Source: a virus
Direction: 5' to 3' (one strand)
DNA length: 51,046 nucleotides
Virus genome (UHGV): UHGV-1266211
Part shown: positions 14,120 through 17,767 of the stretch, piece by piece
How positions within the stretch are numbered: the stretch's first letter is position 1
How the letters are laid out: each line of letters opens with the position of its first letter
Notes under the pieces: generated by a model
The model's database searches: none
Told to the model about the DNA's origin: nothing
What the model saw: only the letters and a program-made list of their open reading frames with translations
Translations under genes and position numbers: made by a program

Positions 14120-14572
14120 ATGACAACTAACAACCACCCGGCGCACGGTCCTGTATCACTCGATCGCCTGCACCAGATAAGCGAAATACTCAGCAACGCA
14201 GCAGCACAAAGCGACGGCGGTAATCTCGGCTATGCAATGGCTGATGCTGTGAAGGTGATTGATGGAGTTCTGGAGTCGATGGCCCGTGAGCAAGTACGCC
14301 GTGAGCATGCTACATGGTCACAGGCTACTTTCGGCGATGTCGGTCCAGTTGGTCCGCTGAAGCACCTTTCCAAAGAAGCGCTCGAGGCGGCAGCTGAACC
14401 AAGTGACCTTACCGAATGGGCTGACATGCAATTCCTGTTATGGGATGCGCAACGTCGTGCCGGTATCAGTGATGAGCAGATTACCCTGGCGATGGTAGAA
14501 AAGTTGGCGGTTAACAAACAGCGCGAATGGCCTGAGCCGAAAGATGGTGAGCCGCGTCTGCACATCAAGTAG
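14120..14572 (+). CDS. DUF550-like protein (putative nucleotide pyrophosphohydrolase N-domain; tentative)
   Basis: 150 aa; ...EWADMQFLLWDA... recalled as typical of the family. Confidence 0.5.
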   Translation: MTTNNHPAHGPVSLDRLHQISEILSNAAAQSDGGNLGYAMADAVKVIDGVLESMAREQVRREHATWSQATFGDVGPVGPLKHLSKEALEAAAEPSDLTEWADMQFLLWDAQRRAGISDEQITLAMVEKLAVNKQREWPEPKDGEPRLHIK

Positions 14573-14625
14573 ACTCTTATGGATAATTGAACCCTAATTC
14601 ATTATGAACATAATAAGGAGTCCTT

Positions 14626-14946
14626 ATGTCTTACATAATGCCTGAAAAAGGCCAAATGAATGAATATGGAATTGAGGCTTTCGGGATCCCGCTTACCAGT
14701 AGGCATGGAGTTGCGATGGAACTGTCTCAAATGCTACGTTTTTCTTACTATGTAGCTTCAGTTGGGCTTGTAAAATGTATTGAAAGTGTCTTCTATGATT
14801 CAGGCTCTTGCTGCTGTAATTTTGAATTTATTCCCGGGTTTAATGAGTATTCGGAGGAGGCAGAAAAAATTAGACAGTGCGCGCTACGTTCGATTGGGCA
14901 ATTTGAATGGTTCGGTATGATTGAACACGGCGACATCAACGGCTAA
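14626..14946 (+). CDS. Hypothetical protein in AT-rich island
   Basis: 106 aa, AT-rich codon usage, followed by a terminator. Confidence 0.4.
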   Translation: MSYIMPEKGQMNEYGIEAFGIPLTSRHGVAMELSQMLRFSYYVASVGLVKCIESVFYDSGSCCCNFEFIPGFNEYSEEAEKIRQCALRSIGQFEWFGMIEHGDING

Positions 14947-14976
14947 GTGTTTAACTCCAATAGCAAACGAATAAAA

Positions 14977-14999
14977 GCCTCTAAGTTAGAGGTTTTTTA
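14977..14999 (+). terminator. Rho-independent terminator
   Basis: cctctaa-g-ttagagg hairpin plus T6. Confidence 0.6.
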
Positions 15000-15137
15000 T
15001 GTCTGAAAGGTAGCATTACCAAGTCTATGGTTGCCTAGCTCAGTCAGGCTTGTATTTGGTTGCTTAGCAATCAACTCATGCGACATGAGCGGGATCTTTC
15101 TAATCATCATTTTCGGTAAATGATTTTGGTTGCTTGG

Positions 15138-15168
15138 TTGACAAAATCGAGAAAATGCGAAAATATAT
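15138..15168 (+). promoter_or_regulatory. Sigma70-like promoter for the 15202-16936 operon
   Basis: TTGACA 15138-15143, 17-nt spacer, AAATAT/ATATAT -10; 11-bp palindrome TTGCT-T-AGCAA upstream at 15059-15069. Confidence 0.3.
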
Positions 15169-15201
15169 GGTTTACGAATTCCAAAAAAAGCGAAACTTGA
15201 A

Positions 15202-15852
15202 ATGAGCGACAACCAGTTAGCACCTTGTTGGGAATTTCAGCCTTACCTTGCTGAAAGCAATGTTCGTCAGTTGTTAGCGGAAATTGCTAATGTACTCGAG
15301 CAATTGTACTACCACAAACACACACTGGACAGTAACTGGTCCGAAGGTGTAAGGGCTTATGATTGGGTCAGAAATCATTTGATTCAAAGTGAAGGGACAC
15401 TGCCGGGTCTGGAAATGGTTTCGAAGGGACTGGATTATGTGGTTGCGTTAAATAAAGTGCCGCTGCAGTTCTCCAAAGATTGCATTAATAACCCGAAGAA
15501 GAAGCATCGCCTTCTTCGAAATAGGGTGGAGCATGAGCAACTTTCATTGTTCGGTGAAACTGAAGCCGAGCAAGATATTACATGGCGGATCATCGCCGAA
15601 CCATTTTTATCCGATGAAGAAGATGGCGAGCTGGAATCAACATTGCCTCGCTGGGAAGTGGCTTTAGTTGGGTTTAACGCATATGGTGCCCAGATCAGTA
15701 TGGTTTCACACCAATCTACTGCTTCAGCGCCGCTTATGTCTCTTGATACCAACACTCTTCCGGATGAAGCTGAGATTGGCAAAGCCTCTCTTCGCCGCCG
15801 TAAAAAAGATCAAGATTTGGATGTGAGCAGTAATGGAACATCAAGTGAATGA
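15202..15852 (+). CDS. Unknown acidic protein, upstream partner of the HTH-ImmA fusion
   Basis: 216 aa, no recognisable motif; 20-bp overlap with the downstream gene. Confidence 0.6.
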   Translation: MSDNQLAPCWEFQPYLAESNVRQLLAEIANVLEQLYYHKHTLDSNWSEGVRAYDWVRNHLIQSEGTLPGLEMVSKGLDYVVALNKVPLQFSKDCINNPKKKHRLLRNRVEHEQLSLFGETEAEQDITWRIIAEPFLSDEEDGELESTLPRWEVALVGFNAYGAQISMVSHQSTASAPLMSLDTNTLPDEAEIGKASLRRRKKDQDLDVSSNGTSSE

Positions 15853-16936
15853 CTTTGCTGAGTATCGTGGGGATAAGCTCAAATTAGCCAGAATGGCTGT
15901 TGGGCTCTCCTGCGAAGAGTTAGCGGAGAAAATTGGTAAAACAAAACAATTCGTTAGCAAATTGGAAAAAGGGTTTAAACCATCAGAACAGTTGTTAGAA
16001 TTAATCTCATCTGCGCTGATGATTAAATCTGATTTCCTATTTACTGAACGAAAATATGCTTTAGAAAGCGATGTTTGCCATTTTCGGAGTAAAAAATCGA
16101 GAACCCAAACATTAACCAATAGTGTTCTGGCAAGGGCGGAGATTCTTAACATTATAATCTCTGCCGTTGAGGGAGAAATCGAGTTTCCTGATGTTTGCAT
16201 ACCTGAGCACCCCGGTGCTGAATTGCTGACTCCAAATGATATTGAACGTGTAGCGGAAGACTGCAGAAGAGCATGGAACTTAGGGCTGGGACCTATATCC
16301 TCAATGGTCAAACTGGCTGAGAGTTTGGGGGTTATTGTTGCTCATGTGACAGGAGTGGATGACCGCGTAGATGCTTTTACTGTTCATAACAACAGGCCAG
16401 TAATCATCCGAAATAACGTCAAAAAGAGTATATGCAGATTCCGATCAGATTTAGGTCACGAATTGGGGCACTTGGTTATGCACGAAGGTATAACCACAGG
16501 AGATAAAGTGACTGAATCGCAAGCGGATCGTTTTTCAAGCGCGTTGCTAGTTCCTCGATTGTCCTTTATTAAAGAGTTTCCCCGTATACGAGGAAGACAG
16601 TTCGATTGGAACGCCCTAGTTGAGTTTAAGCTTCGGTGGAAGATTAGTCTTAAAATGTGCATTTACCGAGCAACAACTCTAGGCCTGCTGACGCAGGAGC
16701 AGGCAAGAACAGGTTATATGCATTTGAACTCTAAAGGATATACGAAAGTTGAACCAGGAGATGAATTTATTCGCCCGGAAGAACCGAGTATGTTAGCTGA
16801 GGCGATTGAAATGCTGGATGATGCAACATGGATGAGCATTCTCATGAAAACTGGTTTAAGCCAGGAGTTGGTTAGGGAGTTATTCTCGGTAAACCGCCCA
16901 CTGTCAAATCCAAGAAATCTACTTCAACTGGTTTGA
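15833..16936 (+). CDS. HTH-XRE + ImmA/IrrE-family (COG2856) Zn-metallopeptidase fusion protein
   Basis: N-terminal ...LSCEELAEKIGKTKQFVSKLEKG HTH; HELGHLVMHE (HExxH) and downstream E in the peptidase domain. Confidence 0.85.
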   Translation: MEHQVNDFAEYRGDKLKLARMAVGLSCEELAEKIGKTKQFVSKLEKGFKPSEQLLELISSALMIKSDFLFTERKYALESDVCHFRSKKSRTQTLTNSVLARAEILNIIISAVEGEIEFPDVCIPEHPGAELLTPNDIERVAEDCRRAWNLGLGPISSMVKLAESLGVIVAHVTGVDDRVDAFTVHNNRPVIIRNNVKKSICRFRSDLGHELGHLVMHEGITTGDKVTESQADRFSSALLVPRLSFIKEFPRIRGRQFDWNALVEFKLRWKISLKMCIYRATTLGLLTQEQARTGYMHLNSKGYTKVEPGDEFIRPEEPSMLAEAIEMLDDATWMSILMKTGLSQELVRELFSVNRPLSNPRNLLQLV

Positions 16937-16953
16937 CTCAAAGCTTGTAATAA

Positions 16954-16978
16954 ACCCGCTATATGCGGGTTTTTTCTT
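16954..16978 (+). terminator. Rho-independent terminator
   Basis: acccgc-tatat-gcgggt plus T-run. Confidence 0.65.
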
Positions 16979-17180
16979 TCTGGTAGCGCGCTGCGGTAAC
17001 GCGGTGCCACCGCCGTTCGCTGAAGCGCTGGTGCGTGCTAATTTGCCGGAACTATGCCAATCGAAACAAATAGCGGCTTAGAGTCTGAGTTTCAGGGCAG
17101 GACGTAACAAATCCTGCTACTTCAATGACGTAGATTTAAACTTGATATAATTGGGCTCCAATCGACAAAGGAGCTATAAA

Positions 17181-17509: not shown

Positions 17510-17767
17510 ATGTCTAGCCATAACATCGCAGCAAAATCAAAAGAAGAACAGGACAAGGTGAACGTTGACCTTGCTGCTTCTGGTGTGGCGTACAAAGAAC
17601 GCCTAAACATGCCAGTTATCGCTGAGCAGGTGGCCCGCGAGCAGCCAGAGAATCTTCGCGAATACTTCATGGAGCGCGTTCGTTACTACCGCGAGCAGAG
17701 CCTGACGCTGCCGAAAGCATCCGATTCGCGTTATCTGGATATGGCTGCGCAGAATGAGAAGAAGTAA
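17510..17767 (+). CDS. Hypothetical protein
   Basis: 85-aa ORF with RBS (GAGGGGGA). Confidence 0.45.

Follow-up and report, generated by a model that had tools for sequence, protein, structure and literature searches.

A RosmerTA-type cassette in an Escherichia coli lambdoid prophage and a candidate sliding-clamp-binding motif in its predicted toxin

Introduction

The virus genome UHGV-1266211 (51,046 nt, read as one strand, 5' to 3'; this whole stretch is hereafter called the window) contains between positions 15,138 and 16,978 a pair of overlapping genes, the first for a small acidic protein and the second for a helix-turn-helix (HTH)/metallopeptidase fusion protein. The locus raises the question of which system the two genes form and by which mode the small protein might act. 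A preliminary description of the region had presented it as a self-contained moron operon and had suggested that the first protein, for which no match was recognized, might be an undescribed toxin or defense effector. Here we present an identification of the pair, a set of features for both proteins and their control region, and a proposal for the mode of action of the predicted toxin. The locus type itself is already known and the locus is ordinary; what is new is a clamp-binding motif in the predicted toxin, and its value is that of a mechanistic lead on the modes of killing and neutralization in Rosmer systems.

Identification of the gene pair

The two open reading frames (ORFs) lie on the plus strand at 15202-15852 (216 amino acids, aa) and 15833-16936 (367 aa) and overlap by 20 nt, exactly as first described; the coding sequences called by RefSeq in the identical prophage of E. 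coli MSB1_9D are the same two ORFs. The 216-aa protein is indeed acidic (pI 4.9; 34 Asp + Glu versus 21 Lys + Arg). A Pfam search assigned it to no Pfam family, and it was matched by the PADLOC model PDLC03929 for RmrT (E = 2.4e-26, residues 7-207 on model positions 5-193 of 198) and by PHROG 5786 (E = 7e-82). The earlier view that this protein matches nothing and may be an undescribed toxin is therefore abandoned: the profile search places it in a known RmrT cluster, and standard defense finders would already label it a Rosmer toxin.

In the 367-aa protein, Pfam detected HTH_3 (residues 16-62, E = 3e-9) and Peptidase_M78 (residues 176-280, E = 1.4e-10), and the HExxH motif is present as HELGH at residues 209-213. 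On the plus strand the Xre-type HTH corresponds to about 15869-16042, the M78/ImmA-IrrE Zn-peptidase to about 16310-16681 and HELGH to 16457-16471; a C-terminal domain of unassigned role follows. The HTH is similar to those of the 434 repressor and SinR. The protein was matched by the PADLOC RmrA model PDLC03943 (E = 8.2e-107, residues 11-349 on model positions 2-341 of 370), by 13 further PADLOC RmrA models and by PHROG 2439, and its alignment with the verified RmrA from E. coli OLC-716 shows 29% identity over 301 aa (E = 3e-35). The earlier description of a self-contained moron of two genes, one of them for an HTH-XRE/ImmA-IrrE (COG2856) fusion, and the analogy to Rosmer systems are thus borne out.

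Because both genes match Rosmer profile models, the locus is very likely a RosmerTA (RmrT/RmrA) toxin-antitoxin (TA) and anti-phage cassette. RosmerTA was defined by Millman et al. 2022 as a Zn-peptidase antitoxin with a toxin of function unassigned. The verified system is that of E. coli OLC-716; a ΔrmrA construct was not transformable (Millman preprint), and phage resistance has been shown for the systems of OLC-716 and of Gordonia phage Kita. One antitoxin type pairs with diverse RmrT toxins in Rosmer systems, and an RmrA of 29% identity beside dissimilar toxins fits this kind of pairing. From these relatives, rmrT (15202-15852) is predicted to encode the toxin and rmrA (15833-16936) the antitoxin and regulator that neutralizes it; phage defense by the cassette is likewise predicted from the OLC-716 and Kita systems.

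A candidate clamp-binding motif in RmrT

A profile search of 1.84 billion representative sequences yielded 88 relatives of the toxin (E <= 1e-3) with a length of about 200 aa; the named ones belong to the Proteobacteria, and all of these are annotated as 'hypothetical'. Codons 15538-15552 (plus strand) of the window encode Q113-L-S-L-F117, a canonical β-sliding-clamp-binding motif, the consensus of the clamp-binding pentapeptide being QL(S/D)LF (PMC9690074). The motif is located where the helix at residues 108-114 ends and a flexible loop (residues 115-126) starts. The predicted local distance difference test score (pLDDT) is about 64 at residues 111-120, and the loop varies in length among the relatives.

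Q113, L116, F117 and G118 are invariant in 13 homologues down to 51% identity. Regarding more distant relatives (17-30% identity), the aligned site reads QLxLF or QLxLxL/F in 66 of 85, a figure which measures conservation among homologues and not independent events; the glutamine is kept in 76 and L116 in 67 of the 85. As a background, the clamp pattern was found in 1.2% of shuffled windows and gave 18 matches in about 17,000 other positions. The forms QLSLF, QLTLF, QFSLF, QLSLPL, QLSLDL and QLALAL interchange at the site, with flanks and loop length varying around them. Alternation between the pentamer QLxLF and the hexamer QLxLxL/F is a known degeneracy of clamp-binding motifs (Dalrymple 2001).

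The verified E. coli RmrT family carries QLKLDL in the equivalent loop (also QLNLDL and QMDLGL, and NLDLF in Vibrio-type members), and this loop is modelled as disordered (pLDDT below 50). The order of secondary-structure elements and the fold match are the same in that family as in the window toxin. A literature search found no description of a clamp motif in Rosmer toxins. RipA of Streptococcus pneumoniae, a toxin assigned to Rosmer, is suppressed by mutations in the hydrophobic pocket (cleft) of the sliding clamp DnaN, binds DnaN and makes clpX essential (PMC12795458). The conserved motif, together with the published RipA-DnaN genetics and the ClpX/ClpP dependence of Rosmer systems, leads us to suggest DnaN as the target of RmrT, a suggestion for which we consider the case evenly balanced.

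Predicted structure of RmrT

The AlphaFold2 model of RmrT, built from 85 sequences (pLDDT 83, predicted template modelling score 0.73), consists of two long helices, three strands, a helix at residues 101-114, the flexible loop at 115-126, three further strands and a disordered tail. The fold is weakly PD-(D/E)XK-like; Foldseek against the PDB returned nothing below E = 0.09. Such a fold would suit a toxin that acts as a clamp-tethered nuclease, which QLSLF would recruit to DNA-loaded clamps at replication forks and whose PD-(D/E)XK-like core would cut DNA there, toxicity then arising from DNA cleavage and not from clamp occupancy. The catalytic D...(D/E)xK signature is not conserved in the toxin family: D78 is kept in 33 of the 85 members, and strand 3, with the consensus V-P-x-R-F-x-[RK], has no conserved acidic residue. 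Because this signature is missing, plain competition for the clamp is favored and a tethered nuclease is regarded as unlikely.

A membrane toxin, by analogy with RmrT of phage Kita, which depolarizes membranes, was also considered and rejected: the window toxin has no transmembrane-like segment (maximum Kyte-Doolittle value 0.84 over 19 residues).

Conservation and mobility of the pair

The preliminary description had named a lack of conservation as a unit elsewhere as an argument against its reading; the pair proved to be strongly kept as a unit. In the window and at 10 of 11 further distinct loci the toxin gene is immediately followed by one for an HTH-M78 protein. This arrangement, mostly with overlaps of 11-35 nt, occurs in Serratia, Xenorhabdus, Yersinia, Limnobaculum, Vibrio, Spartinivicinus and Endozoicomonas and at two metagenomic or assembly loci. 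Regarding the homologues from Serratia, Xenorhabdus, Yersinia and Limnobaculum (51-68% toxin identity), HTH-M78 is always the next gene, with an overlap of 14-35 nt; distant members with HTH-M78 next to the toxin were found in a metagenome, an NCBI genome assembly, Vibrio fluvialis, Spartinivicinus and Endozoicomonas.

Among 5426 complete E. coli genomes the pair is present in 240 (about 4%), as a near-identical copy in 5 and at 80-90% identity in 231. The 80%-identical variant, located in a Rac-like prophage after hokD, is homologous to the window over 15135-16936 only and has unrelated flanks. The same block of about 1.8 kb (15135-16936), which comprises the promoter and the two genes, is found as a unit at different prophage positions and in different genera. 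In Enterobacterales prophages it lies after Q and before the holin gene, after the replication genes, or beside tail-fibre/invertase genes, and some relatives of the cassette are in non-phage islands. The cassette was seen only as prophage or island cargo.

At one further locus (L016, 4001-6797), the gene after that of the toxin relative (P0085, 233 aa; QLSLAL at the position of the motif) encodes a UvrD-like helicase of 690 aa and not an HTH-peptidase, and the upstream region has no TTGAC tandem elements of the kind described below; the same toxin-like domain may here have another partner, the helicase. In V. fluvialis (locus L013, 2804-8600) the Rosmer pair stands beside a resolvase and a pair of reverse-transcriptase (RVT_1) and SMC/AAA ATPase genes, a region which looks like a defense island on a mobilizable genomic island similar to MGIVmi1. 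ParE/Phd, HicAB and HEPN RiboL-PSP genes occur near the Rosmer pair in the prophages of Xenorhabdus (locus L009, 8449-10355) and Spartinivicinus (locus L014, 5871-6743); the same prophage regions appear to accumulate TA and defense cargo.

Promoter and candidate operators

When six Enterobacterales loci were aligned, conservation was found to begin abruptly at GGTTGACA (15135/15136) and to continue to the ATG; upstream of this boundary the sequence is unrelated in the 80% E. coli variant, Serratia, Yersinia, Limnobaculum and Xenorhabdus. Just inside it lies TTGACA (15138-15143), which every homologous Enterobacterales locus has in the corresponding position. The candidate -10 element, AAATAT (15161-15166, N17 spacing), agrees with the consensus at 3 of 6 positions and is weak, for which reason a consensus promoter scan did not call the site, and conservation is what supports the promoter. 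Regarding the TTGACA-N17 promoter described previously, the -35 element is therefore real and conserved, and the -10 element is the part that did not hold up as well.

The conserved block contains two direct copies of the pattern TTGAC-N13-GCGAAA. The first, R1 (GGTTGACAAAATCGAGAAAATGCGAAA, 15136-15162, plus strand), holds the -35 element and reaches the start of the -10 element, which extends just past it; the second, R2 (GGTTTACGAATTCCAAAAAAAGCGAAA, 15169-15195, plus strand), lies 33 bp (three helical turns) downstream, over the 5' leader and the likely start of transcription. Counted from the first base of each copy, the 33-nt units agree at 23 of 33 positions, and the pattern occurs 2 times in the 51-kb window, with 0 occurrences expected. 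A two-copy layout of the form TTGAC-N13-14-GC(R)A, spaced 31-34 bp apart, was found in 9-10 of 11 RmrA-linked loci, also upstream of toxins that are 20-30% identical to that of the window, and is missing at the one locus without RmrA. R1 and R2 are regarded as candidate operators for the HTH of RmrA.

A different operator had been put forward earlier, namely the palindrome TTGCTTAGCAA (TTGCT-T-AGCAA), which lies at 15060-15070, one base away from where it had been placed. It was rejected: several similar palindromes with 5-bp arms occur within the same 230 nt, with one mismatch allowed, two matches, the number observed, were reached in 34 of 100 shuffles (mean 1.31), and the site is upstream of the conserved boundary and absent from the other loci. 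The tandem TTGAC-N13-GCGAAA elements replace it as the concrete operator candidate.

Proposed mechanism and alternatives

We propose that the locus is a RosmerTA cassette whose RmrT, when freed from RmrA, poisons DnaN; taken as a whole, this is a proposal towards which we lean on balance. In the lysogen the operon would be transcribed from its own promoter, and RmrA would keep RmrT harmless. RmrA probably also represses the operon, its Xre HTH binding the tandem elements over the -35/-10 region and the transcription start. As in other Rosmer systems, neutralization probably requires the Zn-peptidase together with host ClpX/ClpP: clpP or clpX is essential where Rosmer-type systems are present, and clpX is essential only in the Rosmer-carrying strains of Pectobacteriaceae. 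A plausible route is that RmrA cleaves or sequesters the motif-bearing loop of RmrT. RmrT would be set free when RmrA fails, be it during phage infection, after the element is lost or when ClpXP is overloaded; it would then dock via QLSLF into the hydrophobic cleft of the β sliding clamp (DnaN), compete with Pol III and other clamp clients and arrest the DNA replication of both host and phage, the outcome being abortive infection or addiction.

A wider reading, in which clamp binding is a shared and previously unremarked property of the 'common-fold' Rosmer toxins, is put forward only tentatively; it is suggested because two dissimilar RmrT families carry the motif in the same loop and because RipA genetically targets the DnaN cleft. 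If it were true, much of Rosmer would amount to abortive infection directed at DnaN, with a protease antitoxin that, aided by ClpXP, neutralizes the toxin through cleavage or masking of the loop that bears the motif. QLSLF is conserved across a family diverging to about 20% identity and is mirrored in the verified E. coli RmrT, and the model could link the RipA-DnaN genetics, the ClpX/ClpP dependence of Rosmer strains and anti-phage abortive infection.

Several points weigh against the proposal. In the AlphaFold2 model Q113 and L114 still belong to a helix end, and the hydrophobic residues of the motif might pack into the fold; the 66 matching relatives share descent, as stated above, and 19 of the 85 members fail the motif pattern, most of them being near-variants. 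Rosmer toxins do not have one shared target, given that Kita RmrT acts on the membrane. The predicted -10 element is weak, and direct repeats are unusual as operators for an Xre dimer. The cassette has been characterized here from its sequence alone, RipA is likened to the window RmrT by description and not by sequence comparison, and the placing of Vmi480 and E101_02645 (see below) in the toxin family is inferred and not drawn from a direct sequence comparison. Finally, neither megablast with the cassette nor tblastn with the toxin gave a match in 50,697 GenBank phage records.

In an alternative reading the ExxQLxLF segment would not be a clamp motif and would instead be a structural element or a site of recognition or cleavage by RmrA or ClpX, with RmrT hitting another target. 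The motif does start inside the predicted helix 108-114, Rosmer toxins are diverse, with one of them acting on the membrane, and hhalign shows no significant relation between the two RmrT families, so that the shared motif could be a coincidence. However, the alternation of QLxLF and QLxLxL/F at one site is that known for clamp motifs, the motif is followed by an acidic loop of variable length whose equivalent in the verified family is modelled as disordered, genetic work on another Rosmer toxin has defined DnaN as its target, and RmrT of the window is without a transmembrane segment. We judge this alternative improbable, to about the same degree as the tethered nuclease.

The polarity of the pair might also be reversed, as in PD-lambda-2, with the HTH-peptidase as the toxic effector and the upstream 216-aa protein neutralizing or regulating it. 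The Xre-peptidase of PD-lambda-2 is indeed toxic alone and is rescued by an upstream HigB-like protein (PMC9519451). In Rosmer-type systems, however, it is the peptidase gene that is not deletable (rmrA; vmi470 unless vmi480 is absent; ripB, essential only with ripA), and in the PADLOC search the window proteins matched RmrT and RmrA models and none of the PD-lambda-2 models; a reversed polarity is therefore given very little credence.

That the pair acts as a switch in prophage regulation, comparable to ImmR/ImmA or DdrO/IrrE, in which the protease-repressor controls prophage genes or induction and the 216-aa protein is an accessory to a system that serves neither defense nor TA functions, would agree with the M78/ImmA-IrrE family being best known from repressor-cleaving switches and with the location among early and nin genes, but it is highly improbable in view of the prophage's own LexA-type repressor and Cro-like module (9.1-10.2 kb), a candidate operator confined to the cassette's own promoter, the varying positions of the cassette (after replication genes, after Q, near tail-fibre genes, also in non-phage islands) and the RmrA-linked toxicity documented in relatives. 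Nor are repressor and protease separate proteins here, as they are in ImmR/ImmA, the HTH and the peptidase being fused in one 367-aa protein.

Genomic setting

The whole window represents a complete E. coli lambdoid prophage. The cassette region is 100% identical to a prophage of E. coli MSB1_9D (NZ_LR890349), where the cassette has O/P-type replication genes on one side and NinB/DUF1367, RusA and Q on the other; it is a moron carried by the prophage in its nin region. The GC content of the AT-rich island is 0.43, compared with 0.52 for the whole window. The island spans about 14573-17150 and includes an unrelated 106-aa ORF besides the gene pair. A scan of the window against Rfam detected no RNA family.

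Two rho-independent-type terminators on the plus strand enclose the cassette, as previously described for the island. The upstream one (14973-15000) consists of a hairpin at 14973-14997 and a T-run; it folds with -11.1 kcal/mol (z = -4.9, equalled by 0 of 200 shuffles), its palindrome was also found in the scan, and it closes the preceding unit of the 106-aa ORF and insulates the cassette. The downstream one (16952-16978) consists of a hairpin at 16952-16972, AAACCCGC-TATAT-GCGGGTTT, followed by a T-run; it folds with -12.8 kcal/mol (z = -5.2), and the scan gave 8 pairs, 5 of them G-C.

The 106-aa ORF (14626-14946; phrog_29216, function not assigned) occupies the 14573-14999 part of the island, with promoter-like sites at 14559-14614 and a terminator of its own; at other loci it does not accompany the Rosmer pair. 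Directly upstream of the island, 14120-14572 encodes a dATP/dGTP pyrophosphohydrolase (PF04447, DUF550-type, E = 9e-42). Directly past the rmrA terminator, 16985-17083 is a DNA methyltransferase pseudogene fragment (RefSeq) with the N-terminus missing, probably the scar of the replacement of most of a nin-region methyltransferase gene by the AT-rich island. A homologue of the DNA polymerase III theta subunit (HolE/Hot-like, PF06440, E = 5e-35) is encoded at 17510-17767, about 570 bp downstream; its vicinity to a predicted clamp-binding toxin may be coincidental, such genes being common in nin regions.

Comparison with known systems

Compared with RosmerTA of E. coli OLC-716, the antitoxins are related as given above, whereas between the toxins neither BLASTP (E = 0.93) nor hhalign (probability below 1%) detected sequence similarity, and the window toxin falls into another RmrT cluster, PDLC03929. 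Nor was significance reached when this toxin by itself, or the family alignments A1 and A2, were compared by BLASTP and profile methods with the verified RmrT or with A4, the family of that protein.

Closer in layout are Vmi480/Vmi470 of the Vibrio mimicus element MGIVmi1 and its relative in an E. coli E101 prophage, the pair E101_02645/02644, both of which place a protein of about 200 aa before an HTH/Zn-peptidase protein of about 362 aa. Vmi480 (198 aa) kills E. coli, an effect from which Vmi470 (362 aa, HTH + Zn-peptidase) rescues the cells, and a 5-bp gap separates the two genes at a locus with res2 (Luo et al. 2015, PMC4671572); the E101 pair makes clpP essential (Rousset et al. 2021). 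The V. fluvialis member of the toxin family (P0037) mirrors the Vmi layout, with proteins of 199 and 361 aa, a 5-bp gap and an opposite-strand resolvase upstream, and the matched PADLOC model PDLC03929 has 198 positions, the length of Vmi480. The toxin family thus probably includes Vmi480. The window differs from the Vibrio loci in that its toxin is about 26% identical to the V. fluvialis member and in the 20-nt overlap instead of the 5-bp gap.

PD-lambda-2 (Vassallo et al. 2022), ImmR/ImmA and DdrO/IrrE share the chemistry of an Xre HTH and an M78/ImmA-IrrE peptidase with RmrA. PD-lambda-2 differs in having three genes, a HigB-like first gene and reversed toxicity, and in ImmR/ImmA and DdrO/IrrE repressor and protease are separate and control transcription programs, not a toxin.

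Regarding the proposed target, two systems can serve as precedents. In SocAB of Caulobacter crescentus, SocB blocks replication via a clamp motif in the β-clamp cleft and is tied to ClpXP; there is no homology, however, SocA is a ClpXP adaptor and not an HTH-metallopeptidase, and gene order and regulation differ. RipA/RipB (Spr1630/Spr1629) of S. pneumoniae (Maziero et al. 2025) is assigned to Rosmer. Searches with the toxin family found no Streptococcus relative, and the word 'motif' is absent from the text of the RipA/RipB paper. The system differs from that of the window in being chromosomal and Gram-positive and in its competence-induction phenotype. As in the window pair, its toxin gene lies upstream of that of an Xre-HTH/ImmA-like antitoxin, and it provides a functional precedent for a toxin that acts on the DnaN cleft in a ClpX-dependent manner.

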